The position numbers and the translations under genes are program-made. A stretch of DNA of 57,806 bases from the IMG/VR virus record IMGVR_UViG_3300029826_000002, positions 1 to 57,806 of that record. One strand, written 5' to 3'. The stretch comes from a virus. Lineage: Duplodnaviria > Caudoviricetes. Under the pieces are notes generated by a model. The model saw only the letters and a list, made by a program, of their open reading frames with translations, did not search any database and was not told the origin of the DNA. Below are positions 22,682 to 45,148 of this stretch, in pieces; position 1 is the first letter of the stretch, and the number at the start of each line of letters is the position of its first letter.

Positions 22682-22738
22682 AATAAAAAAGCCCTGCCAG
22701 TGCCGTAGCACCAACAGGGCTTGATTGTTTCAATACCC
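22682..22738 (-). terminator. Intrinsic terminator with overlapping 5' hairpin (switch copy C)
   Basis: GGGTATTGA-AACAA-TCAAGCCCTGTTGGTGC-TACG-GCACTGGCAGGGCTTTTTTATT. Confidence 0.8.
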
Positions 22739-22759
22739 GTTAATCAACCTTTTTATGTA

Positions 22760-25700
22760 TTAACTGGCCTTCAGTCTCCTTGCGATATCCCTCTTTGACG
22801 GTTTGAATGTCCGTTTAATGTACGTGTCAATGCTCTTGCTCGTTATCGGATTAAGGATGCCGAGCATATTATTTCGTTTAAGCCGTTGATTGTATTCGTA
22901 CACATCAGTCATTATGTCGGCCCATTCTTTCTTAGTTTTCTTGTTCTGCGGCTTTAGAACAAAATCCTTGATGCGCTCGTTAATCTTTGACCGGCGTTCC
23001 TGGTATTCCTTTTCGATATTCTTTTCTCGCCACAACTGGCCTTTCTTTGACGATAATTCAGCAGGGTTGAACGACAACGCCCGTAACCATGCGTCAAGTG
23101 CGCTTGATTTAAGCGGTTCATTTCCCCAATATACCGGCGTGTTTCTGTGGGTTGTAACCCCTTCTGTGCGTTCCCTGTAGGCTTTAATCGGTGCGGCAAA
23201 AGCGTTTGGCAGTAATCGTTCAAACGCCCTGTCAAGCTCACCTTGACTTAAATCACCAATACCGTACCCAATATCCTTAATCATAGAACCCGGAGCGCCA
23301 AGAATTTCAAATAGATCAGTCGGAATATCCGTAACATTGACTTGCAGCGAGCCTTTAAGGTCGAGTCCGAGAAGGCCGAACAAGCCCTGCTCTGTGAATT
23401 TGCCTGCGTTTTCTCCAGCGTTTTCATACATCCACCTATACAATGCTTCTTCTGGATCGTCCTCGTCTTTATCCCATAATTTCAGGGCAAGGTTTACCAT
23501 CTTCATCATGGCCGGTGTAACCATGCTGGCCGTTGTTCCGGCAAGGAGCGCCGGGGAAGCAATGAGCCATGATGCCGCCTTAATATTCTTTTTGTCCCAA
23601 CCAAGCTCTTTCAGGGTGGCAAGGTAGTTGTGCGTAAACGTCTTGAACACATAAGCCGATTTAAGCACCTGTCCACCGATACCGGAACCACGGGCCAGTT
23701 CTGGATAGTTCGGCTTACCGTACGTGCCGTGCGCCTTGTCTGACACCTCTTTGGCAAGCTCCATCTGCTTTTCAAAGGATAGTTCAGGGCGGGTCTTTTT
23801 AATGCCGTCATACGCCCCAAGGATTGTTGCAACACGGTTTATCTGCTCAGTTACCCCGAACATTGCCATTGACGCATCAATCAGCCGACCGTACCCACGC
23901 CCGAACTTACCCTTGAGCACGTTGACCGCTTCCATGTTGAATTGCGCCTTGTGCCAACCCTTATCATAAATCCGCTTTAACGCTTTCTGCGTGTCTTCAC
24001 TTACACTTCCGGGGTTCACCTTCCACGCCCCGTATTTCGTAACGGCTTTGGCTAACAGGTCAGGCGCACGGTGCAGGGGAATATCGGCGTATCCGTTCAT
24101 GGTGGCCGGTACGTTCGTTACCAATGCCGTCATATTCACCGCAGGAGCTGCCAGACGGAACCCAAGGTATTTCAGGACTGCTACACCCTTGACGGTTCCC
24201 ATAACCCTGTCTATGGCCTCATCGTTACGTAACATATCCTGCATATATTTGGTTGCGGATTCAAAGGCGTTCTTCTGCTTTGTAGCTGAAATTTTTTGTT
24301 CTTCCACATGGTCAAGGTAGTTATCATAGTTTATGTGGGCTTCACCGTAATGTCGCTTGCCGTCCGTGGTCTGATATCCTTCCTTTTTCATCCGGTCACG
24401 CCACTCAGCCCAGCTTTCCGTGGTTCCCTTCATGGCGTTTATCATCTTGATAGCCATGTATTTTTTAGCCTGTGCCGAAGCGGTGGATTGTCCTGCCCGT
24501 GCAATAGCTGTCAGGGGGTCTTCCTCGTACCCAGCCCATACGTTCTTTCCTGTCAACCGCTGCCTGTGGATCATGGCCGACCGTGCGCCACGCTCCTTGA
24601 TTGTGTTTGCTAACTGCTCCGCAAACTCAGCGGCAAAGAGCAATTCAATATCGGCACTGTCAATGCCCTTTTGTAAGAACAGGGCTTTGGTAAGTTTCTT
24701 TTCAAGCTCTTTGGTATCAGCACCCTTAAACCGGAACCGTCCACCGTATGTGTATGATTGCTTGCCCCTCTTAAAAAATTCTTCATACTTGCCGCCGTAA
24801 GCCTCAACGATTTCTCTGCTTTTACCCTTCTCGACAATTCCCTTTAGAATAACATCGTCACCGTCTTTTTCAAGCGTAATGCCAATATCTTTCAGGGTCT
24901 TGGTTCGTGGGCTATCCACACCCTCAAGGGCTTTGTCCACAAGCTCGTTGATGGCAATGTTCTGACCGGCAAGGGCAAACACCGATTCGGGCATACGTTC
25001 GGACATTGTGATGGGTGCCACGGTATACCCTTGTTTTTCGAGAGCCATCCTGCGAAATGACGCTGTTGCTTTGGTGTCCCGCATTTCGAGTATCGGCTGT
25101 GCGCCCTTCTTGGTTGCCCTGATAATCCACTTGCCCTGATTTCTTGTACGCGGGAAGTAGTGCCCCCGTAAATCACCCATCTCCGCAAGAGCCACTTTCA
25201 GGTCGATCTTGACCGAATTGCCAAGCTCATCCTTGTAAGCGATTGCCGGTTTCCTGCCCTCTTTCTCATATTTTTCTATCAGTTCTTGGATTGCCTCGTA
25301 GCGCATATTAAATATGTTGTGTGAGATAGACCGGAAGGACACAAGCCCTTCGACCATTGCGTCACTAAAACCCTTCTCTTTAACGTCCTCCGACTCACGA
25401 CTTACCGCCTCATTCCATATTTCGGTTTCGGCTTTTTTCCTGTCTGCCATATCGGTTTTGTCAAATGATATTTCTGAAATCTTTTCGTGTGTTAGTTTAG
25501 ATATGGCATAATATCCATTTTTCTTTTCAACAACTAGATGGTCTATGTATTTCCGGTCACCAGAAGATACTTCTTTTTCTTGCTCTTTTATAATACTTCC
25601 GAGCATACGGTATGCCGCATCCTCAGATGTTGCCTTTGCTGTTTCGGTTAATCGTGGTTTAAGCAAGTCAAACTTATCGTCTTTTTGCTTCACCCTATAT

Positions 25701-28700
25701 CCAACAGCGTCACGGTCACGGTTCAGCAAGTACGCCTGCAACCGCTTGTAGCTCATCTTGTCTTTCTTGCTCAAGCGTTTCAGGTTTTCGATATAGGAGA
25801 TTGTTTCACCGTCCTTATTCTTCCCGTGGAACAATATGTTTGAGTTGGTGTTCTTATCGTCTACCCAGCCCAGCCCAGCGTCATACATCAGTTTTAAACC
25901 GGGAACCTTTGCGCTGTAGTGCGACATGAGGTTTAACATCCGGTCGGCAAGGGTAATGTCCGGTTTGGGTAATTTGAAATCCTGCTCACGACCAAGTATG
26001 CATTTGAGAATTTTCGGGGATGATTCGTCGATGATTTTCTTCATCACCGGATCGTCGGGGCCGAACTTCTCTTTGTACATGGCACCGAGTTTCTTTAGCT
26101 CGTCAGCGGGATTGGTCTTTTCTTCGTACAGGATATCCGGGTTGTTCCCGTCCCATGTGCCTCTGTTGAATATGGATTTGATTTGGGTGGGTTTAAGAGC
26201 AACATATGTTTTATCCCTGAATGGGATGCCGCTTGGGATTGGAGTATTATAATAAGCGGCTTTGTATATAACCCCATCGTAACCGCTGTCGAGAAGTGTT
26301 TTTCTGGAGATATCTCCTCTTGCGCTATCCAAAATATTAGAATTTATAAATTCCCCGACAAAACCGTTTTGTTTACTATTACTATAACCGAAAAACGATT
26401 CTCCTTTTTTGCCCATCTTCTCCGCTATCTTCGATAACACCTCATATTCTTCTGTCCCTTTCTGTATAAGATTATTACCGGAAATATCTAGTGGGTTTTC
26501 TATTGCTAAATATACAGGATACACTCCCCCTGATGGCTCATCCGTTTCCTTATTGAAAGAAAAGCCAGACGCTATTTCTGCTGATTCCGAAAAATGCACA
26601 CCAAATGGGATTTGATTGTTTTTGTTGGGGGATTTTCCTGTTTTGAATGTCGTTTTTGTAGCGTCGGCATCACCCCTATACACCACCAGCGGCTCGCCAT
26701 CCTCGTCAACAACCTTGCTCTTGCCAAACCATTTCTTAAAGGCTGCGGTGGCTGTGTTGCGCTTTGTCTCGTTCAGGGGTTCTGTGCTATCTTCTCGCCC
26801 CTCCGCTTCCCGTATTGCGTCCAGCTTTTCCCCGTTGCGTTCCAGTAGGGCTATCTCGTCGAGGACGGCTTGATCCCATATGACGTAGTTATACGATCCT
26901 TCGCCCTTGCCCCTGCTCATGCCGTCAAGGTATCGGTTGCCGGGGATGCCGATGGAAGCGAGGTATTTGGAAGCGGCCTGATCGTTTCGGGAATGGTTCT
27001 TGATTGTTTTATAGATAGATTCACCCGTATTTTCATTGCCATATTCTTTATCGAACCATTTAATCGGGTTTGTTATATCGTCAAACCCCTTCCATTTGGC
27101 AATCTTTTTTATGGCCGGTTTTAGCGCCTTCTTCACATACTCGCTCTGCTCACTCAGCGGCTTATCCCAATCCAGCAGCTTCGGGATTACGGAGTCGGGG
27201 ATGTCGAGCTTGTAGAGGGAGCCACGAATATTTCTAGACTCTACTTTTTTACCGATGTATGGTTTTATCTGATCGTAACTCTTTACAGCATCCTCATATT
27301 TCTTTTTAGCAGCAGCAGAATCAGGGTGCTTCTCAAGCCATCTCCCTGTATATTCTTTTCTTTCTGTTAATTGATCAACTAGGTTACTAAACGGCAACCC
27401 TGAATGAGACACCCACCGTAAAATATCAGGTGGGCTTTTAACCTCTACCCCATCAACAAAAATACTAGGTTCATTAACATCAAGATAGTGTTGTGCAACA
27501 CTCTCCCCATCCGCACTATACCATCCCCATCCGTAAGCCTGCGCCCCCTCTCCCGTTCCTATCTTGTCCAGCCGTGGCCTGCCGTGCGGGAACCCCTTTT
27601 CAGGAGGCCAAACATGGGGCGTACCGTGCCATACCGTTTGGAGTAACTTGCTCTTAATATTCCTGCCACTCTCCTGCCCCCTCACATTCCCCTTCTCGAT
27701 CTTTCTCAGCACACCACGCTCAGTCAACTTGACTAATCCCACCAGAGAGTCCACAAAGTCTGCTACTTTCTGGAGGATTCGGCCTAACTTCGTCCCCCTG
27801 TACTGCTCTCGGTTAGCCAGATTGGCGCCTATCCACCTTGCCCTCGCTTCCCATCCTTCCCGTGTTTCCATGCCCGGACGCTTTCCTGTGGCTCTGCGGA
27901 CAGCCTCGTTAAGCACCATCTTATCGCCCTTGTTAATCAGGCCGATGTCCTCAAAGAAGTGGCTACCGATTTCGTGGAACACGGTTTCTAAATCGGAGGC
28001 TTTGGTGAATATGACTTCGTGGTTCTGGTATTGCGCTGTGCGTACTGCGCCGGTTGGGGATGTGCCTAAATTCAGCTTAACCTCGCCACCCGTGTCTGTC
28101 AGACCATTGATGGTCAGCACCTTGCCGGGAGCGAACTTCACCGCCACGCTTCCGTCATCGTTTATCTCTACGGACTTGCCTTTCATGAACGGGAGCTTTT
28201 TAAGCTGGGCTAGAGAGATGCCGGAAAAGTCGGTTACGGTGGGGGATTCTTCAAACCGGATATCGTCGCTGGACTTGTCAAATCGATCACTAAGGGGGAT
28301 GACATCGCCTGCTTTAGCCCTACCCTCTTTTACTGCGGCATCGCCCTTGGTATAGTAGGTGACGGGGTCGGCTGATTTGATTTGGGAGGGGGAAAGCGGA
28401 ACATAACTTTTCGGGCGAACATCCACACCGCCTTTTATGTTCGGTTCTGCACCCTCGTCTAAAATAAGAGAATCATATTCAGGGTGTGTTTCTTGCAACC
28501 ACTCTTCCAAATCAACAGAATCAGTCCAATCGGGTAATCCACGCTCTGACAAGGGCGTGCCATTTCCGTATTTACCTAAAAATTCGTCATTGAATATTTT
28601 TAATTCTTTAGCGTTACGAGTATCAAAGGCGTTTCCGAGACTTAAAAAAACCTCATATGTTCGCTTATCGGTCGCATCCTTTAGTCCCGATATCCCCATA

Positions 28701-31700
28701 CTAGAAGCGGTTGTTTCTTGATATCTGTCTGCGTATCTTTTGTCTTTACTAAAATGCGACAATGGATTAAAAACCGTAAAACCACCACGCCAAGTCCCAT
28801 GATACGCTATTGTATCATACCCCGCTTCCCTCGCCGCCTCGTCCACCATCCGCTGCAATTCTTCCCGGTTCGCTTCCGGGTCTTTGGCTAATTCCAGGTA
28901 TCGGGCATCACGGGAGGTGGGGCGCTCTTCGTAGTACGGCTTATCCCCAGGCTTATCCATCAACTCCATGCCTTCGGGGATTAGGTCGGGGTAGTCTTTC
29001 AGGACTTCTTTGGGGATGAACTTGCCTTCGGAGATGGCTTTGCGGATAGCCTCACGGTGCATCCCCTTTATATTAGATTTTTTCGTTCTTGTGGTTTCTT
29101 CTTTTAATAGTTCGCCATATGTTTTTCTCCAGATTGCATGGGGGCCGTCAGAATCCCATCGGCTATTCATGCCAGAATTATATTTTAAAATATGATTACG
29201 CAATTCATCCGGCAATGATTCCAAAACACGCATAGGTATTTTAGCATCACGGGGCAAATTGCTTATTTCATTATAGTATGTTTGCCTCCACGAGTTGATT
29301 TGCCCTTCGGGTGCTTTCGGATATTTCTCTAACTTCTCAGCCAAAAACTCATCAAGCGTCATTTCAGTAACGTTTTTTAGCCCTATAACATTCGTAATGT
29401 TATCGTTCTTTTTTTCGTTACCGTTCACCACTTCCGCTTTCTGCTCGGCCTTGGGGGCGGGTTGCTTGGATTCGGGTACTACTGTGGGTTCAGGCGCTTT
29501 CTTCGGCGCAAGTTTAGCCTTGGCGGTACGCTTCTTTAACGCCGCACGTAAACCGGCTAAATCCATCTTGGGGCTTTTGGGGGTGTCCGTAATCAGGTCT
29601 GATACGGTATCACGTTGCTTGTCTGTCAGGCTATCCACGTAGTCATAGTATGCCTGAGTAGATTGCCGCTTGTAGGGCTTTAACGTGGCAAGGTGGGATT
29701 CTCTTGGGGTCGCTTGCGGGGTTTCTTTGGTATCACCTGCAATTCCCTCAACGCCCTTCTCAACTCTTCCGGTTTGTCCTTCAGGTGATACAGTCCCAGC
29801 CTCTTCAGCCTGTTCTCTGTACTCATCGTTAAACCCTCCTTCTTCCTTTAGTGCTTCAACTTCAAGGTCGGTGTCCCGAATCCAAGCATCAACGGCGGTG
29901 AAATCCTTTTCGTCCTCGATCTCGTTTTCTTTTCGGTGTGCTTCAGCCGCTTTTCTGTATTTGTCAGGAGAAAATTGCCTAGCCGCAAAAGTAAGCCCTG
30001 TGCCTGGATTTCTCCCCTCTTTGGTGTGGGGTATGCTATCAAGGTTGTTGTCTTTAATGTACTGCTTAACCCGTGGTGCAATTCTGTCCAGAACATCATC
30101 AACCTGTTCCTCTGTTGCACCAACGACCGTGAACCCGAACTCATCACCGCCCTTTGTGGTGAATCCGATTTCCACACCCAGCTTTTCAAATTCTTCTCTG
30201 GCAATATCGGCCATTGCCTTAAAGTACGGGTCGGCTCCGGTCTGCCCGAATTTCTTATTAAGACCTCCAAGGTTGTATAAATCGCCCTCGACGTACACCA
30301 CCGGCACGTTGTTTTTTTCTGCTGTTTCGGCGGCGAACTCTGCAAGGCGTTTACTGGCATATTTCCCCTCCATCATTCCGGTTACGGGGTGATGGTTTAC
30401 TATCGAAACCCTCCTGTCACCAGCTTTCCGTTGTGCCAACCTTTTTTGCTGTTCTTCCTCAAATCGGTCGAGTATAGAAGGCGTTTCCTTGCCTGATTCG
30501 ATTGTCTCAGAATCGGCTACACCTGTCAAGCCTTTTTCGTCCGTAGCCACCGTATCGCTCTCAGGCGGCACGATCTCCGTTTCAGGCTGTGCTTGTACCG
30601 TATTGTCCGGTTGAATAACGTCTGCGGCCTCTGAGGAAGTAGGTGCGGGAACAACGGGGGAGGGGGAGGTGGGGGGAGGGGTTTCCGTTGCTCCACGCAC
30701 GCTATCTTGCCTGATGGTATCCGCAAATGCCTGACGTATTTCGGGGCTTACATTCTCGTTGTTGAGGAAGCCGCTTACAACTTTGTTGACCTTCTTTTGA
30801 TCGCCTTTATCTATCGCCTTTTGAAACTGATTGCGGAACTTGGCTATTTCGAGCTTTTCTTTTTCCGGTGAAACGGGCACCTCTTCCTGCTTACCACCAA
30901 CCAAATCAATATCATCACCCACAATCACCGGCTGACCGTTCGCCCGTGCTTTCTCGGCGTGTTCCTTAAAGCTCTTGGCAAGCCCCTTATCTATCTTTTC
31001 AACCGAACTGGCCACGGTGTTTACAACTGCGTTAAATTTTTCATCAGATGATTTCGGGTCGGAAAGCGTGTCAACAATATCTTTTCTGGTCTGGTAATTA
31101 TAGGCAGTACCGGCACCGCCAAAAAGCAAAGACATGAATATGGTCGGCCCGATGATATCAAGAACGTTCTCTTTTATGCTTCCCGCATCAACTCCGTATT
31201 TATTTGAAAAGTACGTTTGTGAAGCCGCCTGTCCTGCTTCCGTGGCAACCTCACCAAAAATGGTTTTACCTATGCTCTTAATCGCTTCTGCTGGGCCTAG
31301 CTTGGATGCTATTGATTTTACAATACTGTTTTTTATCGGCTTAGATGCGACACCAAACAGTTTCAGGGGGATGGCATCTTGCACAACCTCTCCACCGGTT
31401 TCAATAATACCCTCGATATTGGCGAGTTTAAAAGCGGTTTCCTTGTCCACCCCCTGCCGGATTGCTTCACGGTATTTATCTTCTGCCGAACCACCGTAAA
31501 AAAGACCACCAAGGGTAGCAAACCCTGCGGCAACACCAGCAGGGCCACCAGTAGCAAGCCCAGCAATAAGCGGTACGGCTGACTGTACGGCGTTTTCCGG
31601 CCCTGTAGCCATCATGTGCATAGGAGAGTACCACGGGGCGTTCTTTGCCTTCTCAGACATCCCTATGACCGGTTCAAGGCGTTTCTGCTGAGTATCACCA

Positions 31701-32119
31701 AAACCCTCTACGGCCTGCCCTGCACCCTGCAACAGCTTCCTTGCGTAGTCCTGAATGGGGTTCTCGAACCCTTTCGGCGTCAACATCTCATCCGAAAACC
31801 GTTTCAAGAATTGCATGGCCTTACCGGTCTGTTGCGGAATTACCGTATTCCACCCACGGGAGAAAGACTTGGCACCCTCTTTGGCTAAATCCGGCCCCTC
31901 GGTTGCGATATAACCAGCACCCTTCTGAGCCACCATTTTTGTAAAGTCGGCGGCATCAGACACGAACGAGCTTTCCGGCATCCTAAAGTTTGTGTGGCGA
32001 TCCGGTATCTGCTCTTCCTGCGGTGCCTGCTCAAACGGATTATAGTCCACCGGTGTCAGCTTCGCCGTGCTGGTTTGTGTTTCAAATGGGTTGTGGTTTA
32101 CCGGAACAAGAATTGCCAT
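22760..32119 (-). CDS. Giant polyvalent internal virion/ejection protein (GGDEF-like, three ART-like, zincin-like modules)
   Basis: 3119 aa, following the ejection genes; KGGDEF at aa 656-661; YHGT, WHGT and YRGD ART-type modules; HEIGSH; helical C-terminal region. Confidence 0.8.
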   Translation of the reverse strand: MAILVPVNHNPFETQTSTAKLTPVDYNPFEQAPQEEQIPDRHTNFRMPESSFVSDAADFTKMVAQKGAGYIATEGPDLAKEGAKSFSRGWNTVIPQQTGKAMQFLKRFSDEMLTPKGFENPIQDYARKLLQGAGQAVEGFGDTQQKRLEPVIGMSEKAKNAPWYSPMHMMATGPENAVQSAVPLIAGLATGGPAGVAAGFATLGGLFYGGSAEDKYREAIRQGVDKETAFKLANIEGIIETGGEVVQDAIPLKLFGVASKPIKNSIVKSIASKLGPAEAIKSIGKTIFGEVATEAGQAASQTYFSNKYGVDAGSIKENVLDIIGPTIFMSLLFGGAGTAYNYQTRKDIVDTLSDPKSSDEKFNAVVNTVASSVEKIDKGLAKSFKEHAEKARANGQPVIVGDDIDLVGGKQEEVPVSPEKEKLEIAKFRNQFQKAIDKGDQKKVNKVVSGFLNNENVSPEIRQAFADTIRQDSVRGATETPPPTSPSPVVPAPTSSEAADVIQPDNTVQAQPETEIVPPESDTVATDEKGLTGVADSETIESGKETPSILDRFEEEQQKRLAQRKAGDRRVSIVNHHPVTGMMEGKYASKRLAEFAAETAEKNNVPVVYVEGDLYNLGGLNKKFGQTGADPYFKAMADIAREEFEKLGVEIGFTTKGGDEFGFTVVGATEEQVDDVLDRIAPRVKQYIKDNNLDSIPHTKEGRNPGTGLTFAARQFSPDKYRKAAEAHRKENEIEDEKDFTAVDAWIRDTDLEVEALKEEGGFNDEYREQAEEAGTVSPEGQTGRVEKGVEGIAGDTKETPQATPRESHLATLKPYKRQSTQAYYDYVDSLTDKQRDTVSDLITDTPKSPKMDLAGLRAALKKRTAKAKLAPKKAPEPTVVPESKQPAPKAEQKAEVVNGNEKKNDNITNVIGLKNVTEMTLDEFLAEKLEKYPKAPEGQINSWRQTYYNEISNLPRDAKIPMRVLESLPDELRNHILKYNSGMNSRWDSDGPHAIWRKTYGELLKEETTRTKKSNIKGMHREAIRKAISEGKFIPKEVLKDYPDLIPEGMELMDKPGDKPYYEERPTSRDARYLELAKDPEANREELQRMVDEAAREAGYDTIAYHGTWRGGFTVFNPLSHFSKDKRYADRYQETTASSMGISGLKDATDKRTYEVFLSLGNAFDTRNAKELKIFNDEFLGKYGNGTPLSERGLPDWTDSVDLEEWLQETHPEYDSLILDEGAEPNIKGGVDVRPKSYVPLSPSQIKSADPVTYYTKGDAAVKEGRAKAGDVIPLSDRFDKSSDDIRFEESPTVTDFSGISLAQLKKLPFMKGKSVEINDDGSVAVKFAPGKVLTINGLTDTGGEVKLNLGTSPTGAVRTAQYQNHEVIFTKASDLETVFHEIGSHFFEDIGLINKGDKMVLNEAVRRATGKRPGMETREGWEARARWIGANLANREQYRGTKLGRILQKVADFVDSLVGLVKLTERGVLRKIEKGNVRGQESGRNIKSKLLQTVWHGTPHVWPPEKGFPHGRPRLDKIGTGEGAQAYGWGWYSADGESVAQHYLDVNEPSIFVDGVEVKSPPDILRWVSHSGLPFSNLVDQLTERKEYTGRWLEKHPDSAAAKKKYEDAVKSYDQIKPYIGKKVESRNIRGSLYKLDIPDSVIPKLLDWDKPLSEQSEYVKKALKPAIKKIAKWKGFDDITNPIKWFDKEYGNENTGESIYKTIKNHSRNDQAASKYLASIGIPGNRYLDGMSRGKGEGSYNYVIWDQAVLDEIALLERNGEKLDAIREAEGREDSTEPLNETKRNTATAAFKKWFGKSKVVDEDGEPLVVYRGDADATKTTFKTGKSPNKNNQIPFGVHFSESAEIASGFSFNKETDEPSGGVYPVYLAIENPLDISGNNLIQKGTEEYEVLSKIAEKMGKKGESFFGYSNSKQNGFVGEFINSNILDSARGDISRKTLLDSGYDGVIYKAAYYNTPIPSGIPFRDKTYVALKPTQIKSIFNRGTWDGNNPDILYEEKTNPADELKKLGAMYKEKFGPDDPVMKKIIDESSPKILKCILGREQDFKLPKPDITLADRMLNLMSHYSAKVPGLKLMYDAGLGWVDDKNTNSNILFHGKNKDGETISYIENLKRLSKKDKMSYKRLQAYLLNRDRDAVGYRVKQKDDKFDLLKPRLTETAKATSEDAAYRMLGSIIKEQEKEVSSGDRKYIDHLVVEKKNGYYAISKLTHEKISEISFDKTDMADRKKAETEIWNEAVSRESEDVKEKGFSDAMVEGLVSFRSISHNIFNMRYEAIQELIEKYEKEGRKPAIAYKDELGNSVKIDLKVALAEMGDLRGHYFPRTRNQGKWIIRATKKGAQPILEMRDTKATASFRRMALEKQGYTVAPITMSERMPESVFALAGQNIAINELVDKALEGVDSPRTKTLKDIGITLEKDGDDVILKGIVEKGKSREIVEAYGGKYEEFFKRGKQSYTYGGRFRFKGADTKELEKKLTKALFLQKGIDSADIELLFAAEFAEQLANTIKERGARSAMIHRQRLTGKNVWAGYEEDPLTAIARAGQSTASAQAKKYMAIKMINAMKGTTESWAEWRDRMKKEGYQTTDGKRHYGEAHINYDNYLDHVEEQKISATKQKNAFESATKYMQDMLRNDEAIDRVMGTVKGVAVLKYLGFRLAAPAVNMTALVTNVPATMNGYADIPLHRAPDLLAKAVTKYGAWKVNPGSVSEDTQKALKRIYDKGWHKAQFNMEAVNVLKGKFGRGYGRLIDASMAMFGVTEQINRVATILGAYDGIKKTRPELSFEKQMELAKEVSDKAHGTYGKPNYPELARGSGIGGQVLKSAYVFKTFTHNYLATLKELGWDKKNIKAASWLIASPALLAGTTASMVTPAMMKMVNLALKLWDKDEDDPEEALYRWMYENAGENAGKFTEQGLFGLLGLDLKGSLQVNVTDIPTDLFEILGAPGSMIKDIGYGIGDLSQGELDRAFERLLPNAFAAPIKAYRERTEGVTTHRNTPVYWGNEPLKSSALDAWLRALSFNPAELSSKKGQLWREKNIEKEYQERRSKINERIKDFVLKPQNKKTKKEWADIMTDVYEYNQRLKRNNMLGILNPITSKSIDTYIKRTFKPSKRDIARRLKAS

Positions 32120-32977
32120 CTATTCGCCTTCCACCAAGTAAAATTTTCCGTTTTCTTCGTAGTAATACTTCCCATCCGGAGCTTTTACGGCGGTAACTGT
32201 TTTGCCACCATCAACGGTAACTTGTTTCTTGGGTGGTGATACCTGTTCTGTATTATCTTGCTCTTGCCGTGGGGTTTGCCCCTGAACACCACCTTGGAAC
32301 GCTCCCATATTCAATAACCCAACCCCATCATGCTCTGGCCGTTTATATTTGCTTGGGTCAAAACCGGTAAGCATCCGATAATAACCAAGAGTTTCTTTTG
32401 CGAGGCCAGCAAGTTCCGGGTCATCACCTGCAATATACCACTTCAGCAATTCATATGGATTTTGAGCCGTTGTTCCGGTGTCAAGTCCAAAGGCGTAATC
32501 GCCAGCATCTTTTTTGGCAAGCATTTTCATGTTTATATTATACTTGTCGGAGATTATTTTTCTTTTATCTTTTTGTGCCTGATTAGCCGCTTTAGCCTGT
32601 GCCGCCTGATCGTTCTGTGTTAATCTGGATTTATCGTATTCAAGTTTATCTTTCTCCAACGCAAGTTGATCTGCATAATATCTCTGCTTGTCGGCGTATT
32701 GCTGTTTCTGTAGGGCGTCATGTTCCCGTTGTCGCTTAAAATCTTCAAAAGCACTTGCCACCTGGACAATACCGCCCATATCCTGCGGAGAAAGATTATT
32801 CTGCTGTGCAAACTTCTGAATACCCTCTGGGGTATAATCCCCCTGCTGAACAAAAGCCTGACCGAGTTGGCGTATCTTTTTCTGTTTCAGGAAATCGGCA
32901 ACCTGCTGGATTCCACGATTAGCCGCTTCCTGCTGATATTGAGAAGCCTGAATTAAAGATGGAATTACGTTCGCCAT
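32120..32977 (-). CDS. Putative ejection (internal virion) protein
   Basis: Q/A-rich and helical; position. Confidence 0.55.
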   Translation of the reverse strand: MANVIPSLIQASQYQQEAANRGIQQVADFLKQKKIRQLGQAFVQQGDYTPEGIQKFAQQNNLSPQDMGGIVQVASAFEDFKRQREHDALQKQQYADKQRYYADQLALEKDKLEYDKSRLTQNDQAAQAKAANQAQKDKRKIISDKYNINMKMLAKKDAGDYAFGLDTGTTAQNPYELLKWYIAGDDPELAGLAKETLGYYRMLTGFDPSKYKRPEHDGVGLLNMGAFQGGVQGQTPRQEQDNTEQVSPPKKQVTVDGGKTVTAVKAPDGKYYYEENGKFYLVEGE

Positions 32978-32986
32978 GATATTCCC

Positions 32987-33904: not shown

Positions 33905-33914
33905 GACAACCTCC

Positions 33915-34475
33915 TTAATATCTCAACATTCCAGCCATCAATTCGTATGGTGCGAGCGGGTTCTGAGACTTGGAACTGCTTGTGCTGGTAGAAGTCCCTG
34001 ATCCCGTGCTTTCTTGTGCCAACTGAGCAATATTGCCGAGAATGTTCGGCAACTGCATTTGCGCCGCATATTGTGCTAGCTGAGAATTAAAGCCCTGATT
34101 CGCTATATCCTGTGCCGCCTGATTCTGAGCGCCAGCAAGGGCGTTTCCGGCCACATTGCTGTTTAACATGCCCCGCTGTGCCAACTGGTTTAATGTACCC
34201 TGAAACTGATTCGGCCCCATTGCCTGACGCATAGCATTAGCGTACTGCCCCTGAATGGCCTGCCCCATATTATTCACAACACCGGGAAGGTTCTGCCCTG
34301 CCGTGATAATCGGCTGTTCCATCTGAGCCGCTACGGGTCTTTCCCAGTTTATACCGGCCTGACTCTGGTTACTCGAACTGCTGGCCGAGTTAGATGAGCT
34401 TGTGGGGAACAGGTCTGTGGGAATGTTAAACCCAACCGCTTCTGGTGTTTTACTATTACCTGTAATCCAAGACAT
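33915..34475 (-). CDS. Putative ejection protein
   Basis: Q/A/N/S-rich; LAQRGMLNS motif; position. Confidence 0.55.
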   Translation of the reverse strand: MSWITGNSKTPEAVGFNIPTDLFPTSSSNSASSSSNQSQAGINWERPVAAQMEQPIITAGQNLPGVVNNMGQAIQGQYANAMRQAMGPNQFQGTLNQLAQRGMLNSNVAGNALAGAQNQAAQDIANQGFNSQLAQYAAQMQLPNILGNIAQLAQESTGSGTSTSTSSSKSQNPLAPYELMAGMLRY

Positions 34476-34484
34476 GATTTCCTC

Positions 34485-35198: not shown

Positions 35199-35939
35199 TT
35201 AAGCCACCCAATATAAAATGCAGTAACCATCAGCACCGGCACCGCCATCCTTAACCGTTGGGCCAGCAGCCGCAGCACCACCAGAACCACCAGCGCCGGT
35301 ATTCGCAGAAGCCGCAGCGCCGTTGTCGTTGGCAACACCGTCCGCACCGTCACCATACGAACCACCTCCAGCACCACCACCACCGGCAGGGGTAGTCCCA
35401 CCCTTACCGTAGCCGGGGCACCCTTGAGCGCCATTGGCAGATGTAAACCAAGCCTGACCGCCCTTTCCGCCCTGACCGCCGCCTGAACCACCGGAACTAC
35501 CACCGTACTGCTCTGCGCTGTTGGCAGGATTGTAGGGGCCACCACCGGCACCACCGGAAGCGTCTGACCCGTTCGATCCAGAACCGCCCACGCCGCCATT
35601 AGCTGTAATGGTCGTAGTCCCGTCTGAAAGCGTGCTATCACCACCGTCACTACCAGCAGCACCGGGAGCACCACCGGCACCACCGGCACCACCAGCACCA
35701 CCAGCACCTATTGTTATGGCTAGACTTGTGGCGCTTGAATCGACAAAAAGCGTTCCGGTCTTTACTTCACCGCCACCGCCTCCACCGCCGTCAAAGCTGC
35801 CGTCAGTTCCGCCGCCGCCTCCACCTGCCGCCACAAGGATATACTCAAATGCAGATACACCAGCAGGGATAGACCAAGCCGCATCGGTAGCAGTAAACGC
35901 TTTTGCTTTCGATTTTGCTGTTGAAGGAGTTAAACCCAT
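35199..35939 (-). CDS. Glycine-rich tail/adhesin-like protein, paralog 1
   Basis: WSIPAGVS..LVAAGGGGG..GADGYCILYW. Confidence 0.7.
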   Translation of the reverse strand: MGLTPSTAKSKAKAFTATDAAWSIPAGVSAFEYILVAAGGGGGGTDGSFDGGGGGGGEVKTGTLFVDSSATSLAITIGAGGAGGAGGAGGAPGAAGSDGGDSTLSDGTTTITANGGVGGSGSNGSDASGGAGGGPYNPANSAEQYGGSSGGSGGGQGGKGGQAWFTSANGAQGCPGYGKGGTTPAGGGGAGGGSYGDGADGVANDNGAAASANTGAGGSGGAAAAGPTVKDGGAGADGYCILYWVA

Positions 35940-36283
35940 TAGCTTGTCACCTTCTTCTGGCCCTCAAGAACAAAGCTCAACTTGTCCGCTGTGCTTGCCT
36001 TGATTCGGATTGTCTCTGTTGCATTGGCGTGGATTGACAGTTCTATTGTGTCGTTCGCCGCAACCGCCCTGTCGTAAAACACCCAATCGTCACCGTCAGC
36101 CGCTACGTCACCATGGCCTTCCGTGGTATGAGCTACCCGACAAGTCCGGTCGGAAGAATCCTGGTTGCAAATTCTCAGGACAGCATTGATTTCCGTGCTT
36201 GCCGGAACAGCGTAAAGCTCCGCTTCGTCCGTATTGGCCGGGCATGAGCTTGCCAGTTTGCAGAATGTGTTTGTTATCGCCAT
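35939..36283 (-). CDS. Tail-associated protein
   Basis: LYAVPAST..ICNQ..YD..VAANDT; position. Confidence 0.6.
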   Translation of the reverse strand: MAITNTFCKLASSCPANTDEAELYAVPASTEINAVLRICNQDSSDRTCRVAHTTEGHGDVAADGDDWVFYDRAVAANDTIELSIHANATETIRIKASTADKLSFVLEGQKKVTS

Positions 36284-36295
36284 CTTGTCGCCTCC

Positions 36296-36348
36296 AATAA
36301 AAAAGCCCCACTACCATCCGGCAGCAGGGCTTGAGTTCTTCAATACCC
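36296..36348 (-). terminator. Intrinsic terminator with overlapping 5' hairpin (switch copy B)
   Basis: GGGTATTGA-AGAAC-TCAAGCCCTGCTGCC-GGAT-GGTAGTGGGGCTTTTTTATT. Confidence 0.8.
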
Positions 36349-36366
36349 GAATATATGGTTCAACGC

Positions 36367-36801
36367 TTAGAACGCTATGGAACCGAAAAACGCCAAGTTC
36401 TCAGCATCCCTTACGAGTTTTGTCATGTCGGTTTCAAGGGTTGATATGCTTGTTGTTAATGTCGCAATCTGGCCCGTTGATTTGAGGGATATGGTCAGTG
36501 TTTCATCGCCACCGTCATTACCCTCGGTCAGTAAAATGTCGGTATCGCCCAACAGCTTCCCATTGAGATATCCCGGCGTGGTGTCGTTGGCTGATACGGG
36601 ACAACCCGTACCAACCGTCAGGGCGGCTATGGAATCGTCAACACCGTCCAGCCTTGTATCGAGGTCTGATTCACCACCACGGGCGGTTTCCACCTCAAGC
36701 GCAATAGCGAACAACTCTGTCATATCGTCGTTGGCTTTTTTATATAAAGCGTCTTTAACCGTGTCTGTTTTTAATATTGCATCTCTGGAAACGGCAGTCA
36801 T
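36367..36801 (-). CDS. Tail fibre anchor / needle-like coiled-coil protein
   Basis: EVETARGG..LDTRLD; VSANDTTPGYLNGKL. Confidence 0.55.
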   Translation of the reverse strand: MTAVSRDAILKTDTVKDALYKKANDDMTELFAIALEVETARGGESDLDTRLDGVDDSIAALTVGTGCPVSANDTTPGYLNGKLLGDTDILLTEGNDGGDETLTISLKSTGQIATLTTSISTLETDMTKLVRDAENLAFFGSIAF

Positions 36802-39104
36802 TAGTAGCTCAACCTCCTGTATTTAAGGAGTATTCCATTGTTGTAAATCGGATACCCGGCCATCGTGATACCATTCACTTCAACCATGACCGACCTACCG
36901 TTAAAATTGATGTACTGAAAAAGTGGGGCCGCAAGCTCTGGATCGACAAGAAATAAAGCATCCTCAACGTCCATAATCGCTTCATCCACAGTCAGGTTAT
37001 CCCGTACCGCTAAAGCAATTGTCGTGCTTGCCGTGGTCGTTCCATAGATACCGTTGGTGTAAAAATCCATGTTGATCGAGCCACCGCCCTTAATGCTGGT
37101 CGCAATCTGCACCTCATTGAAATTGGCGTGGGTGAACGGCAGTTCCATGTATGCTGTTCTCAGAATGGGTAAAAGCTGGATTGTACTCATATCTTTATAA
37201 TCGGTTGCATCCACCCTGTACAAGAATCCGTCAGACGCACCAATCAGAAAATAATTGCCTGATTTACCAAAGCACTGAGGCTTTAATATCGTCCTAATAC
37301 ATACGCTCGTTGTGTCTGGATCGCCGCTCTCGTCCCTTACATATACCGTATTAAATCCAAGGGTGTCATTGTCCCCGTAATCCCATTGGTGGTCTGTAAG
37401 GCTTCCTGCGGTCCCCTCAGATGACACTACACCGTTGATAGTAATGTAATCCGGTTGGGCATCAAACCCCGGATCATTCCCGTCAGTATCCGTATAATAA
37501 TATTCATTCGTACCGCTGCCCGAAGCAGTCCATTTGCCGTTGTCGGAATTGCTTAAATTGTGCTGATAAAGCTCGTACTCTGCCCGTGGGTATCGAACTC
37601 CGCTACCGCTTGGGTCTTGTGTGGGATGTTTGGTGTGGATCACAACAACCCTGTGATAATCCATGACAAGCCACACCTGCCCGTCAACAGGGTAGTACCC
37701 TGCTACGGCTGTGCTGCTACCCCAATAATCATCGAACCGGTCAGAAACGGGGTCTGTCTCTGCCTGCGCCCGTAAATCGCCATACTCCTGAACACCGGAT
37801 ATCGGCACAGCACCTTCGTTTGTGAAATACCAGATATCGTTTACCGCATCGGTCAGGGTGAGGTGCGTACACCACGGGCGCTGGAACGTAAGCGATTGAA
37901 CATACTCGGACGGAGAACCGCCAGAAATTGTTGATAAATATGGTTGGCTTTGAGTGCCAAACACGTATAGGTTTCCGTAGAACGCTTTTAACCCGCCGAC
38001 CTCAAAGTTGTCATTGTCGCTATCAATCATACCGATGTAGCCGCCACCGTCTGTTGTTGACCAATCGAGGTGGGTGAGATTTCCGTACCATACATAGCCT
38101 GGGTTATCTGGATCACCAGCCACAAACGGGCGCTTGTTCCAGATTTCTCCGAACTTGCCCTTGGGCGGTCTGCCGGGGCCGACCTTTAAAACAACGTCTT
38201 TCGTATCGTCTGCTTTCCATGCGCCATCATTGTAATACGAGTCACCACCGGAACCAATATTGTAACAAACCAGCTTGACGTAGTTGGCACCATCACCACC
38301 AGCGTATTCAATCGAAGCGTAGTAGGCGGTGCTTGGTGACATTTCAGTTGTAACGTCTGCCGCTAAAAATGTGGCTGTGAACAGCGCCGGGGTTCCCTCT
38401 GTTATATCGGAACAGGAGCAAAGCGTTTTAGTTGCCATTGCCGCCCCGGTCGTGGAGTTTCTTAAAACTGCACTCACGCTACCGGACGGTGAACCTGCCT
38501 TATCCAGATACACACCAATCGTTGTTATCGGTATCGTGTATCCGCTGTCCCATGCCGGTGTAGTGAACTTTTTTGCCGCCTTGGTATTGGTCCCGTTACC
38601 GACCGCAAGAAAAGCGTCCTGAGTCAAAGCCGTATCGTCAACCATGTACCCGGACGTACCAGTACCGCCGTCATAGCAAATCTTAATGCTCGTCACACCG
38701 TCGAGGTATTTGATGTAAGACCCGTCAAACAACAGCGCCACACCGTTGTATGACATAATGGTGGTAGCCCCCTCAAGCGTTCCGATTGTCGTGGCTTCAA
38801 GGTCTTCGTTCAGGTAATACAGTATATCGTTGGCATCAACCAACAGCGTATAGGTTGTACCGCCGATATTTACTTCCTCACAAGTTTTTACCGCCGCATT
38901 ATTGGTTGTAGCAGTTGCCGAGTATTTTATAATCGGTGGCCTACTTACCAAACCACCACCCTTTCTAATTTTCCAGTTTATGAGCTTGGACGCTTCAGTC
39001 GGGGCGATTCTGTCAGCCGCAACATTAGTGTTAAGCCCGTGCCGAAAATCGGTCAGCGGTAATGTTTCGTATTCAACCTGTGTTTGAAGGTTCTGTTTAA
39101 ACAT
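36801..39104 (-). CDS. Tail nozzle (P22 gp10 / tubular B-like)
   Basis: 767 aa, beta-rich; DFRHGLN N-terminus; follows the adaptor. Confidence 0.7.
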   Translation of the reverse strand: MFKQNLQTQVEYETLPLTDFRHGLNTNVAADRIAPTEASKLINWKIRKGGGLVSRPPIIKYSATATTNNAAVKTCEEVNIGGTTYTLLVDANDILYYLNEDLEATTIGTLEGATTIMSYNGVALLFDGSYIKYLDGVTSIKICYDGGTGTSGYMVDDTALTQDAFLAVGNGTNTKAAKKFTTPAWDSGYTIPITTIGVYLDKAGSPSGSVSAVLRNSTTGAAMATKTLCSCSDITEGTPALFTATFLAADVTTEMSPSTAYYASIEYAGGDGANYVKLVCYNIGSGGDSYYNDGAWKADDTKDVVLKVGPGRPPKGKFGEIWNKRPFVAGDPDNPGYVWYGNLTHLDWSTTDGGGYIGMIDSDNDNFEVGGLKAFYGNLYVFGTQSQPYLSTISGGSPSEYVQSLTFQRPWCTHLTLTDAVNDIWYFTNEGAVPISGVQEYGDLRAQAETDPVSDRFDDYWGSSTAVAGYYPVDGQVWLVMDYHRVVVIHTKHPTQDPSGSGVRYPRAEYELYQHNLSNSDNGKWTASGSGTNEYYYTDTDGNDPGFDAQPDYITINGVVSSEGTAGSLTDHQWDYGDNDTLGFNTVYVRDESGDPDTTSVCIRTILKPQCFGKSGNYFLIGASDGFLYRVDATDYKDMSTIQLLPILRTAYMELPFTHANFNEVQIATSIKGGGSINMDFYTNGIYGTTTASTTIALAVRDNLTVDEAIMDVEDALFLVDPELAAPLFQYINFNGRSVMVEVNGITMAGYPIYNNGILLKYRRLSY

Positions 39105-39715: not shown

Positions 39716-39717
39716 GA

Positions 39718-42834: not shown

Positions 42835-43920
42835 CTAGTGAGCGGCGCTGTAAGCAGTCATCACCATGCAGCCGTAGTTTTTGGAATTGTACTGCGTGGC
42901 CTTGACACCAAACACCATGCCAGCCGCAATACCCTTTTTGTCGTTGTAGTCACGAATGTTCTCAGCCCATGACATCGGCAGATCACCCAGCCCACCACGA
43001 TCCATCTTGGCGTATGCGTTTCCGATAGCGAACGCACCAGCCTGGCAACCCAGGAACAGATTACGCCTTACCGTGCCAGCCGTAGCAGCGTTGGCAGAAG
43101 ACAGAATCCGGTTGGAGTCGAACAGGATGATGTTGTTATAAACACCGTTGGCACCGGAAAAAATCGGGTTCTTCAGGCCACGCACGTTGGCGTACTGCTG
43201 AATATCCGACCATTTGATTGTGGCAGAACTGTTGGTGCTTACCTTGAGATCGGTCATGGAATAATCGTGCAGGACAGCCACGTAATACTCGGCACCGTCA
43301 ATCTTCGCCGGTCGAATCATCGGGGAAATGGTACGGGCTTTTTCCTTGGCATAGTCCAAATCCATGAGATCGAACTGATCATTGTCACTCAGGTTGCCTT
43401 CGTCAGTGGCAATCGTACCGGTATGGGACACGTCACCACACACAATGTAATGATCAGTGTCCGGATCGGCACCGGTATTGCTGGCGTGACTGAACGTTGT
43501 ATCCCCACACAGGGAACGGAACATATAGGTGTCCAGCGTGTCAGCCCACCAATCGGTCAGGTTTTCTTTGGCGTCTTTCCGCATATTGTGGATGGTTCTC
43601 TGCTGACTCATGCGGTCGAATGTGTGCGCCTGCCGAAGCTGGTCGATGTTTATAGAATCCTGGTAGTAGACCATCGGAGCTTCGTTGTCTTCCATCCAGT
43701 TGTTTCCGGTAACACCGGAACCGGCTGTTTTTACCAGCAGGTCGTACTTGATCTGATCACCGGCGCTCCTCTCCAAATCCATGTGGCGTGTGATAATGCT
43801 TTTCTTGTCCGTACCGAGAAACTTATTGATGAACGTACCCCGGATAGACTCACGGAACGTCATCTTGGAAAAAAGTTTTACGGCTTGGGCATCACTTGAT
43901 GCGAACTCTGTTAAAGCCAT
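42835..43920 (-). CDS. Major capsid protein (N4-gp56 / DUF4043-like)
   Basis: AGDQIKYDL, IDQLRQA, KNPIFSGA.GVYNNIIL, LFLGCQA. Confidence 0.85.
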   Translation of the reverse strand: MALTEFASSDAQAVKLFSKMTFRESIRGTFINKFLGTDKKSIITRHMDLERSAGDQIKYDLLVKTAGSGVTGNNWMEDNEAPMVYYQDSINIDQLRQAHTFDRMSQQRTIHNMRKDAKENLTDWWADTLDTYMFRSLCGDTTFSHASNTGADPDTDHYIVCGDVSHTGTIATDEGNLSDNDQFDLMDLDYAKEKARTISPMIRPAKIDGAEYYVAVLHDYSMTDLKVSTNSSATIKWSDIQQYANVRGLKNPIFSGANGVYNNIILFDSNRILSSANAATAGTVRRNLFLGCQAGAFAIGNAYAKMDRGGLGDLPMSWAENIRDYNDKKGIAAGMVFGVKATQYNSKNYGCMVMTAYSAAH

Positions 43921-43929
43921 TTCTTACTC

Positions 43930-44961
43930 CTATTCACTCAAGGAAAAGGCGGCTCTTTCTATTCGGTTGAAGTCCTTGTCGGGCATATTCAGGAAGTCCT
44001 CTACTGACATGGAATCTGCAATATCGTTGAGGGTTCTCCCGGTTGACCCCTTCTGGTTCTGCTGGCCTGAAAGATTGCTCGCTTTACCCTTGAAAAATTT
44101 AAGGTTTTTACCGTTTTGATCTTCTTTGCCTGTTTGTTTCTGCGAGCGTAGAACAGTATCGAGAGCTTTCTTGACCTTGCGTGGTCGGTACATTCCGTTC
44201 GTGCCGACTGTGCAGGCTTCAACAACCAGATCAACGTCGAGGTCGGGGAACGCCGTAGCGAACTCCTCCCCATAGTCTCTTTCAAGCAAGGACATAACCT
44301 CGTCAATACTGGTCGTCTGGACGGACAAACCGTAACGATCCATAATCTCACCGGACTTGTCGTCAAGAAACTTGTAAGCCTTATGGACGTACTGAAAAGC
44401 AGCGGGGTAGTTTTCGTTCTCCCCAATAACGTTGGATATGATGCTTTGGTTCTTACTTACCGTTTCGTTCTGAAAGCTTTGGTTTTTCATCCCGGCGATT
44501 TCTTTTTCCAATCTGGCAATTTCGTCCTTCGCCAAATCCTTGAAATACTTTGCCGGTACGTAGGCGTCACCGTTCTCGTCAAACTCAACTGGATATCCGT
44601 CCTTCGTGGTCACACCTTCAACCGATTGCTTGGCGGCATCGCTTACCATCTGCTCACGTTGCGCCCGTGCTTCCTGCATCATTCCCTTTAACTGGTCAAG
44701 CTGACTCTTGAGTTCCTTCCGTGTCTGCCGCTCGTTCTTCTGAGCGTGGTACAGCCCCTTGTTCTCTTTTTTGAGAAACTCAAGCTCCTTAACCAGGTCA
44801 TCGACGGTCGGTTTAGCCGGTTTTTCCTTCTCCGGCTCATTGTCGGTCTCTTTGGCTTCTTCAGCTTCATCGGCCAATTCAAGCTCTTTGGCCTGCGCCT
44901 CTAAGTCCTCTTCTGACTCGTCAATTATTTCGTCCATAAGGTCTTTGATTTCTTCGCTCAT
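43930..44961 (-). CDS. Capsid scaffolding protein
   Basis: Acidic N-terminus and coiled coil; lies between portal and MCP. Confidence 0.75.
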   Translation of the reverse strand: MSEEIKDLMDEIIDESEEDLEAQAKELELADEAEEAKETDNEPEKEKPAKPTVDDLVKELEFLKKENKGLYHAQKNERQTRKELKSQLDQLKGMMQEARAQREQMVSDAAKQSVEGVTTKDGYPVEFDENGDAYVPAKYFKDLAKDEIARLEKEIAGMKNQSFQNETVSKNQSIISNVIGENENYPAAFQYVHKAYKFLDDKSGEIMDRYGLSVQTTSIDEVMSLLERDYGEEFATAFPDLDVDLVVEACTVGTNGMYRPRKVKKALDTVLRSQKQTGKEDQNGKNLKFFKGKASNLSGQQNQKGSTGRTLNDIADSMSVEDFLNMPDKDFNRIERAAFSLSE

Positions 44962-44975
44962 TTCCTGTTCTCCTC

Positions 44976-45091
44976 GTTTAGCGCCAGTTATCGTTGGCGT
45001 GTACGTTTGCGGCTTTAAGCCGAGTGTTTGCGGTCTGTGACCGAGTTTGCGTCCGTTCTGCTGGACGTTGCCTTTTCTGCGCCCGTAGGCG
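44976..45091 (-). repeat. Array of five short hairpins in the scaffold 5' leader
   Basis: CGCC/GGCG, CGTCC/GGACG, CGGTC/GACCG, CGGCT/AGCCG and CGCCA/TGGCG, each followed by CAAAC or a variant. Confidence 0.7.
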
Positions 45092-45148
45092 AAAATAAAA
45101 AAAGCCCCAAGGTCGTAATGACCAAGGGGCTTAGTTTTTCTAATACCC
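45092..45148 (-). terminator. Intrinsic terminator with overlapping 5' hairpin (switch copy A)
   Basis: GGGTATTAG-AAAAA-CTAAGCCCCTTGGTC-ATTAC-GACCTTGGGGCTTTTTTTATT. Confidence 0.8.

Follow-up and report, generated by a model that had tools for sequence, protein, structure and literature searches.

A 22-nt hairpin overlapping terminators of phage late genes and its co-occurrence with a 50-residue protein: a candidate antitermination module

Introduction

How might a phage transcribe through strong intrinsic terminators that lie inside its own late gene block? The question is raised by a complete virus record (IMGVR_UViG_3300029826_000002, 57,806 bp), the full length of which constitutes the window analysed here. 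A first-pass annotation of the window, made from the sequence alone, described three minus-strand sites between co-oriented genes (45148-45092, 36348-36296 and 22738-22682) at which a 22-nt hairpin is joined to a terminator, and proposed that the two RNA structures exclude each other and that one trans-acting factor controls read-through. The positions and orientation of the sites are borne out by our analysis, as is, in every part that can be tested computationally, the overall interpretation. We regard it as moderately probable that the element is a protein-stabilised antiterminator that gates the head, tail/ejection and lysis blocks of the genome: RNA binding, antitermination and timing are what we infer from the observed structure, overlap and co-occurrence that are described below.

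Results

Three hairpin-terminator units

The pattern GGGTATT-N9-AAGCCC matches the window exactly at three places, each of them located on the minus strand and joined to a strong intrinsic terminator. When up to two mismatches are allowed, the number of matches rises to seven as compared to the 1.74 expected (none of 100 shuffles reaches seven), and the reversed-pattern control yields no matches in the window. Hairpin copy 1 (45127-45148, minus strand; inner stem AG/CU, loop AAAAA, 35.1 bits with the covariance model) begins 4 nt past the stop codon of the open reading frame (ORF) 45153-45347, with the scaffold-position and capsid genes located downstream; the 5' arm of its terminator (45097-45132, minus strand) starts from hairpin position 17, and the stem is followed by 7 U. 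Hairpin copy 2 (36327-36348, minus strand; inner stem GA/UC, loop AGAAC, 32.7 bits) begins 18 nt past the stop codon of ORF 36367-36801. Its terminator (36299-36332, minus strand; 13 pairs in a simple scan) lies no more than 13 nt before the ribosome-binding site and start codon (ATG) of the next gene, a fibre-like gene at 35939-36283 (minus strand) that starts at 36283. Finally, hairpin copy 3 (22717-22738, minus strand; inner stem GA/UC, loop AACAA, 37.6 bits) begins 21 nt past the stop codon of a gene encoding a protein of 3119 amino acids (aa), and its terminator (22685-22722, minus strand; 15 pairs) is located upstream of the block 22669-19314.

The 22-mers fold as ((((.((((.....)))))))) with energies of -5.6, -6.1 and -5.9 kcal/mol, that is, with a bulged A between a lower and an upper stem of 4 bp each and with a pentaloop on top, the stem including a U·G pair. 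The annotated fold with its bulged A and A-rich pentaloops (AAAAA, AGAAC and AACAA) is thus reproduced, and the compensatory double change that had been claimed for the 45k copy, from GA/UC to AG/CU, is confirmed. Folded at their full length of 57-61 nt, the stretches form terminators (-21.9, -24.5 and -27.0 kcal/mol; z-scores of -4.4, -3.7 and -5.0), and at all three sites we find a GC-rich stem that directly abuts a U-run of 6-7 U. In a simple scan of 19000-38999 the 22k and 36k sites rank as the top two terminator-like sites; the 45k site was missed by the simple scan, yet it folds as a terminator (-21.9 kcal/mol). What the three copies have in common is limited to the 22-mer, the terminator stem base and the U-run: as the annotation held, the interiors of the terminators bear no relation to one another, and there is no conserved flank upstream of the window copies.

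Covariation of the hairpin

We scanned sequence collections for further copies. A first scan, with a fixed inner stem and with no terminator required, returned 18 stretches: eight carry a fused terminator, two (one sequence, L038/L043) are followed by a long hairpin but no U-run, and eight are coding or chance matches with loops that are not A-rich. Second scans, in which the two inner pairs were left as N and the terminator base was added to the pattern, returned 16 viral, 77 metagenomic and 46 genomic stretches that reduce to 113 unique matches, 48 with both inner pairs formed and 65 without full pairing. The matches fall into two classes, one of ordinary A-tract terminators with 0-1 inner pairs and one in which both inner pairs are formed, the loops are A-rich and the terminators are long. 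Among the inner stems of the latter are GA/UC, AG/CU, GG/CC, CA/UG, AA/UU, UG/CA, CG/CG, UA/UA and GG/UC.

A test of covariation is provided by 11 rows that were reached via protein homology alone. In this set 94.3% of cells pair, as compared to 76.9 ± 2.5 in shuffles (0 of 500 reach the observed value), both sides change in six of the eight pairs, and pairing in slid-register controls is at most 54.5%. Judged by the comparative data, the hairpin is real: it has 4+4 bp including a U·G pair, one bulged A and a pentaloop rich in A. The loop is mostly A-initial and variable (AACAA, AAAAA, AGAAC, CCUAA and others), with conservation residing in the stem, the bulge and the U·G pair. The bulged purine and the U·G pair are kept almost everywhere, and the lower stem, bulged A and U·G pair are kept at the nucleotide level across phages of 38-60% GC. 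The inner stem also varies within single genomes: the window has GA/UC twice and AG/CU once, L124 (two copies) has GG/CC and GA/UC, L089 (two copies) has a G·U pair, and one of the three copies of L108 has an A·C mismatch.

No Rfam 15 family matches the element: a search of the whole window at gathering thresholds finds only a tRNA, and in E-value mode the best match across three 3-kb loci is an unrelated small RNA with 31.1 bits against a threshold of 55 (E = 0.3). The L038/L043 sequence is a form apart: at 1312-1333, upstream of a capsid gene in a phage of 63% GC, a canonical 22-mer precedes a long perfect hairpin to which no U-run is attached, and this may be a variant suited to hosts with terminators that lack U-runs.

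The same comparative data bear on whether the element could instead act as DNA: as an operator, as a late promoter bound by a protein dimer, or as an N4-style DNA-hairpin promoter inside the terminator, new transcripts in the promoter version starting within the terminator and so escaping termination. Such a role would suit the near-palindromic sequence and the dimer modelled for the candidate protein (see below), as well as the location of copies just upstream of high-demand genes with no space for a separate promoter; between the candidate promoter at 51807-51835 and these genes, sigma-70-like matches occur only at chance level. We nevertheless hold a DNA-level function to be very unlikely. 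Inner positions vary within one genome yet mostly remain complementary, for which a double-stranded DNA site offers no reason; there is a conserved asymmetry, with a bulged purine and with U·G pairs that are C·A mismatches on the opposite strand; the U-run and the start codon follow the element at distances that vary by about 30 nt; and no -10 or -35 element is conserved downstream. Moreover, the related locus L008 lacks the 36k copy and keeps the same gene order, which implies that no promoter is required at that position. Two specific DNA sites were considered and rejected: a site of the FNR/CRP type, on account of N5 rather than N6 spacing and of altered half-sites in one copy relative to the consensus, and a sigma-70 promoter within the element, for want of a conserved -10 element.

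Mutual exclusion of hairpin and terminator

The proposal that the 3' arm of the hairpin is the 5' arm of the terminator was evaluated on 26 copies and holds in all of them, including those divergent in sequence. In 21 copies the first base of the terminator 5' arm is hairpin position 17, in four it is position 18 and in one position 13, so that the two structures overlap by 5-10 nt in 26 of 26. The overlap is kept despite differing sequences in L189, L192, L195 and L196, and the fold of L191, a 27th row, shows it as well. When formation of the hairpin is enforced, the residual terminator stem stops at least 4 nt short of the U-run in 24 of the 26 copies. Since an intrinsic terminator requires a stem that abuts the U-run, a hairpin that is held in place should disable termination. 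Left to itself, the hairpin is 14-27 kcal/mol weaker than the terminator.

A small protein gene co-occurs with the element

The candidate gene for a trans-acting factor, 45473-45625 (minus strand, 50 aa), precedes hairpin copy 1 on that strand, with no second copy of it detected in the window. A gene of this small-protein family is found upstream of the element, on the same strand and 9-1656 nt away, in 19 of the 113 unique pattern matches. This set is an unbiased test of covariation, the scans having left the two inner pairs as N: all 19 have both inner pairs, with six dinucleotide types represented, while none of the 65 incompletely paired matches has the gene (Fisher p = 7e-9, or 3.9e-8 when at least 400 nt of upstream sequence is required). 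Ten element-bearing viral loci that have no tblastn match at E <= 1e-5 to any of the 92 window ORFs encode a protein of about 50 aa located 9-1548 nt upstream of the element, with the motif of the 45473-45625 product. A hidden Markov model of the small family matches every viral locus with a true element, no chance locus, and none of the 18 distant capsid relatives described below.

The association is also seen when the search starts from the protein. Searching viral contigs with alignment A7 of the wider family yielded 12 loci, 11 of them distinct, and in eight of these 11 a hairpin of like architecture, fused to a terminator, follows 0-490 nt downstream of the gene with its stems changed: pair 1-22 is A-U, U-A or C-G, pair 2-21 is A-U or C-G, pairs 6-18 and 7-17 are C-G or U·G, and U4-A19 occurs together with a bulged G in one lineage. 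Used in a related-locus search, the sub-alignments A3 and A4 led only to contigs already reached by the RNA pattern.

Two products had been put forward as the trans factor, those of 45153-45338 and 45473-45625. Co-occurrence singles out the latter, which, judged from sequence, is likely the factor that opens the gates; the former gene (45153-45347) is not conserved. ORF 45153-45347 (minus strand), situated between the small-protein gene and hairpin copy 1, encodes 64 aa, is extremely Lys/Arg-rich and has no family match. The close relative L024 does not have this ORF, the interval between small gene and hairpin being just 24 nt there, and for this reason its product is unlikely to be the conserved factor, although its arginine-rich character is still notable.

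Predicted structure and family of the small protein

AlphaFold predicts the 50-aa product to consist of a helix (residues 3-17) followed by a β-hairpin (22-29 and 32-40), with a predicted local distance difference test score (pLDDT) of 88.7. The homodimer model scores 0.61 as compared to 0.00 for the best of three controls; the mark applied to this score is reached by 20 of 30 proteins solved as one-chain pairs and by one of 23 that were solved as a single chain. Agreement between runs extends to 100% of contacts, with a partner pLDDT of at least 81. The modelling lends support to pairing, and the protein is probably a homodimer. Two members of the wider family, P0030 and P0062, carry two tandem repeats of the ~45-aa unit per chain, an arrangement consistent with the dimer being the working unit.

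A word-index search places 21 clusters in the small-protein family, none of them named, and a full HMMER search extends the wider family to 739 clusters at E <= 1e-3, ten of them at E <= 1e-10. In Pfam, nothing matches the window protein at E <= 1. For the L030 relative, the score against DUF2292/YezD (PF10055; cut-off 22 bits) is 15.8 bits, and 13 of 60 wider-family members match PF10055 at E < 0.01 (best 2.6e-6), from which a remote relationship of the family to DUF2292/YezD is suggested at the sequence level. Three of 23 small-protein family members match an unannotated PHROGs family (E = 0.003), and NCBIfam holds nothing relevant. Searched by sequence, the PDB contains no solved relative (best E 0.082); Foldseek against the PDB gives no matches at E <= 0.001 (best E 1.7), the top ones, the arterivirus and coronavirus nucleocapsid dimerisation domains, being not significant and set aside. 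The ESM Atlas returns only ‘hypothetical protein’ viral clusters with scores of 0.79-0.80, below lead level. With tblastn, neither the window protein nor P0040 has a match at E <= 1 among 50,697 GenBank phage records, and a literature search at the level of abstracts returned no description of this protein or motif.

The dimer model also brings to mind a mode of action other than antitermination, namely that the pair acts post-transcriptionally, in the manner of MS2 coat protein, on the processing, 3'-end stability or translation of the flanking genes. A bulged-A hairpin and a small β-sheet dimer recall the MS2/PP7 coat-operator pairs, and in L108, L124 and L089 several copies flank single head genes and could delimit mRNA segments. 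Against such a role, which we deem rather unlikely, the constant feature of the element is the overlap with the terminator 5' arm in all 26 scored copies; the hairpin overlaps no ribosome-binding site, with the next start codon located 40-170 nt downstream; and the scan that did not require a terminator gave no copy with an A-rich loop that lacks a following long hairpin.

Distribution among relatives and unrelated lineages

A capsid-based search retrieved 24 loci, six with 73-78% and 18 with 51-59% capsid identity (L005 was too short to score). One of the closer relatives, L004 (on one contig with L042 and L047), has all three copies of the element; in L008 and L024 the copy upstream of the scaffold-position gene is present, and L006 has a degenerate version. 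L007 (74% capsid identity) has lost the small gene and retains only a remnant of the decayed hairpin and terminator. The 18 loci with 51-59% capsid identity contain neither the element nor the protein (best covariance model E = 0.13).

Scars of the module are left in two of these relatives. At 6690-6730 of L007 the decayed hairpin is fused to the end of the upstream ORF and followed by a U-run, and at 15020-15045 of L008 the scar GGGT...GGCTTTTT takes the place of the 36k copy of the window, with the gene order being the same. Together, they suggest that hairpin and terminator are gained or lost as one unit.

The element always shares its sense strand with the genes on either side. In a complete phage of 36.8 kb that has terminal repeats, just one copy is present, and it is located between the small gene and the head genes; an unrelated HK97-like group has copies before the protease, decoration and capsid genes; and in L049 the element precedes the large terminase gene. 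These varied contexts indicate that the module is not tied to one gene order. The occurrence in phage lineages that have no other detectable protein in common (38-60% GC), with 1-3 copies per genome, together with joint loss or decay in one relative, marks it as a portable regulatory unit.

A further group is of a different kind. In L148, a 418-kb contig from an uncultured deltaproteobacterial assembly, a canonical element has a large serine recombinase gene upstream and a ParB-like gene downstream. L065 has the same ParB-like gene downstream, and L069 and L135 share with L148 only the sequence of the element and terminator. The context in this group is not that of head genes, and no small-protein homologue is detectable in the locus examined; it may be a hint of host range or represent a second use of the element.

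Genomic context of the window

By its gene content, the window looks like a podovirus. The minus strand encodes a P22-type portal (46007-48184), the large terminase (48835-50181), the major capsid protein (42835-43920) and the scaffold-position gene (43930-44961), and a small terminase is named by PHROGs at 50178-50642. The 3119-aa protein (22760-32119, minus strand) contains an ART-PolyVal domain (ADP-ribosyltransferase in polyvalent proteins) at residues 1805-1985 and, judged from its size and position, is probably a virion or ejection protein. Family searches gave no match for most other window proteins. All flanks of the three sites are co-oriented with the element. The 45k site has the portal gene and small ORFs before it and the scaffold-position and major capsid genes after it; the 36k site lies between genes for 767-aa and 144-aa proteins and the fibre-like genes with the 3119-aa protein; and the 22k site lies between the 3119-aa protein gene and the block 22669-19314, which contains a phage lysozyme gene (19786-20211).

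Megablast of 9.4 kb of the window against GenBank phages revealed no relative at the DNA level, and the closest GenBank phage capsids are 29-36% identical to that of the window. The window sequence is found in four DNA sequencing runs, all from one marine-sediment study, and in no listed RNA run.

Divergent, strong sigma-70-like sites are located at 51807-51835 (minus strand; 10 of 12 matches) and 52017-52045 (plus strand; 11 of 12), flanked by the late block on the minus strand and by a small island on the plus strand (51912-52835) that closes with a terminator at 52844-52865; this area resembles a regulatory switch region and a candidate site from which the late operon starts. A tRNA-Gln gene (anticodon TTG; 53240-53314, minus strand) is the sole Rfam or ARAGORN match in the window. 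One ORF runs off both ends of the record (3-1421, minus strand, a 473-aa part; 57416-57805, minus strand, a 129-aa part), consistent with a circularly permuted or circular genome that was opened within a gene. Past the end of the late block, among plus-strand genes, a strong terminator-like hairpin with 14 pairs at 17680-17711 (minus strand) lacks the 22-nt element and has a poor U-run.

Discussion

A proposed mechanism and what weighs against it

In our proposal, every element works as an RNA switch with two states. The strong terminator would form by default and RNA polymerase would stop, the upstream 22-nt hairpin (-4 to -8 kcal/mol) being too weak to win unaided. The small protein would be made from transcripts that end at the first gate and, with its gene located upstream of that gate, would be made first. 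The 50-aa product, probably as a homodimer, would then bind the nascent hairpin via the lower stem, the U·G pair and the bulged A, withholding from the terminator the five or six bases needed beside the U-run, and transcription would continue. Acting in trans, the factor would open the gates before the scaffold/capsid, fibre/ejection and lysis blocks.

Several observations weigh against this proposal. No homologue of the small protein is detectable in the locus examined for 29 of the 48 fully paired matches, many of these loci being short. Two assembled genomes with such orphan copies gave one weak match each, and one of the two is an ordinary bacterial YezD-like protein that is not linked to the element; upstream of the orphan copies, divergent homologue candidates were picked by eye in L084, L093 and L108, none of which reaches significance with hhalign (E = 0.028, 0.41 and 0.0039, respectively). 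Conversely, three of the 11 protein-anchored loci (L187, L193 and L194) lack a canonical overlapping hairpin. The small protein has no recognisable RNA-binding family or fold in Pfam, the PDB or Foldseek searches. The 99.6% pairing seen in the 30-row alignment A8 is partly circular, since its rows were in part picked for pairing. Finally, a terminator placed right before the scaffold and capsid genes, the products of which are needed most, is a counter-intuitive position for a gate.

The orphan copies (29 of 48) would fit a switch that acts in cis without a phage-encoded factor, tuning the leakiness of the terminator or sensing upstream translation, with the small gene linked by position; a ribosome at a nearby stop codon would cover the 5' arm of the hairpin and thereby favour termination. 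In favour of this reading, the window hairpins begin 4, 18 and 21 nt past upstream stop codons and, in the L030/L031 group, the hairpin begins 9 nt beyond the final sense codon of the small gene and some 6 nt beyond the stop codon. We consider the cis-acting switch unlikely, however: the nucleotide-level conservation of the lower stem, bulged A and U·G pair across 38-60% GC suggests sequence-specific recognition and not just a demand on structure, the hairpin is by 14-27 kcal/mol the weaker structure, the distance between gene and element varies from 9 to 1656 nt yet the protein sequence and a confident fold are conserved, and L007 has lost gene and switch together.

Implications

Taken in full, the protein-stabilised antiterminator would be a self-contained, horizontally mobile module of a 50-aa dimer and a 22-nt hairpin, representing an unrecognised form of late gating, terminator by terminator, a new fold for RNA binding and a first lead on function for the DUF2292/YezD superfamily; to this wider claim we give an even chance. 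If the antitermination proposal is right, late timing in uncultured phages rests on a tiny protein-RNA pair at each terminator, in a manner that differs from processive antiterminators (lambda N and Q, Xp10 p7 and P23-45 gp39), late activators and sigma factors. As the 739 clusters of the wider family have no known function, a demonstrated RNA-binding role would annotate many genes, and a 50-aa protein with a 22-nt target would make an attractive orthogonal switch for synthetic biology.

Comparison with known systems

The logic of the system is known, being that of LicT/RAT-like attenuation, while both the protein and the RNA are undescribed in Rfam, Pfam, PHROGs, NCBIfam, the PDB, cultured phages and the literature at abstract level. 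With DUF2292/YezD (PF10055) the small protein shares its size and a central G-x-V-x-I-x-F/V-x-x-G-x-V motif, although the window protein itself has no Pfam match even at E <= 1. DUF2292 has no known function, the sole relevant literature match being a B. subtilis genome announcement.

Like the targets of ANTAR proteins (AmiR, NasR and EutV) and of HutP-type regulators, the element would be a protein-stabilised antiterminator in competition with an intrinsic terminator. ANTAR proteins contain sensor domains and have as their target a tandem pair of hexaloop hairpins, whereas the window protein has no Pfam match to link it to either type. A small bulged-adenine hairpin and the proposed binding of a small dimer are shared with the MS2/PP7 coat-operator pairs; there, translation is repressed at the start codon, while here the hairpin overlaps a terminator rather than a ribosome-binding site, and the protein has no Foldseek match at E <= 0.001.

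The first-pass annotation compared the element with the ribonucleic antiterminator (RAT) of the BglG/LicT systems and with lambda/P22 boxB. In LicT, the 3' part of a weak hairpin is the 5' arm of the terminator, and stabilisation of the hairpin by a small dimeric RNA-binding module results in read-through. This working logic is shared with the BglG/SacY/LicT-RAT systems of Bacillus and E. coli, and the hairpin-terminator overlap is shown for the present element, so the comparison stands as far as logic is concerned. It does not extend to membership of the family. The candidate protein, at 50 aa, is too short to contain the PRD sensor domains and is predicted as one helix and a β-hairpin; the CAT domain family is not matched, given the lack of a Pfam match and of Foldseek matches at E <= 0.001. 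The RNA, at 22 nt with 4+4 bp and one bulged A, differs from RAT, and the system is phage-borne, has several copies per genome and would serve late structural genes instead of sugar operons.

The likeness to lambda/P22 N-boxB is similarly one of logic and not of kinship: both combine a small phage protein with a short hairpin that has a purine-rich pentaloop, with several copies per genome and passage through terminators. The hallmarks of N/boxB are an arginine-rich N peptide, a boxB with a 5-bp stem and a GNRA-like pentaloop, and a boxA nearby. Upstream of the three window copies no flank is conserved, the boxA consensus itself not having been searched for as a pattern. Here the 4+4 bp bulged stem, its bulge and the U·G pair are conserved and the loop is variable, and the candidate is a folded protein, not an arginine-rich peptide. 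Lambda N acts processively from far-upstream nut sites and requires Nus factors and boxA, whereas in the window each terminator has its own overlapping hairpin.

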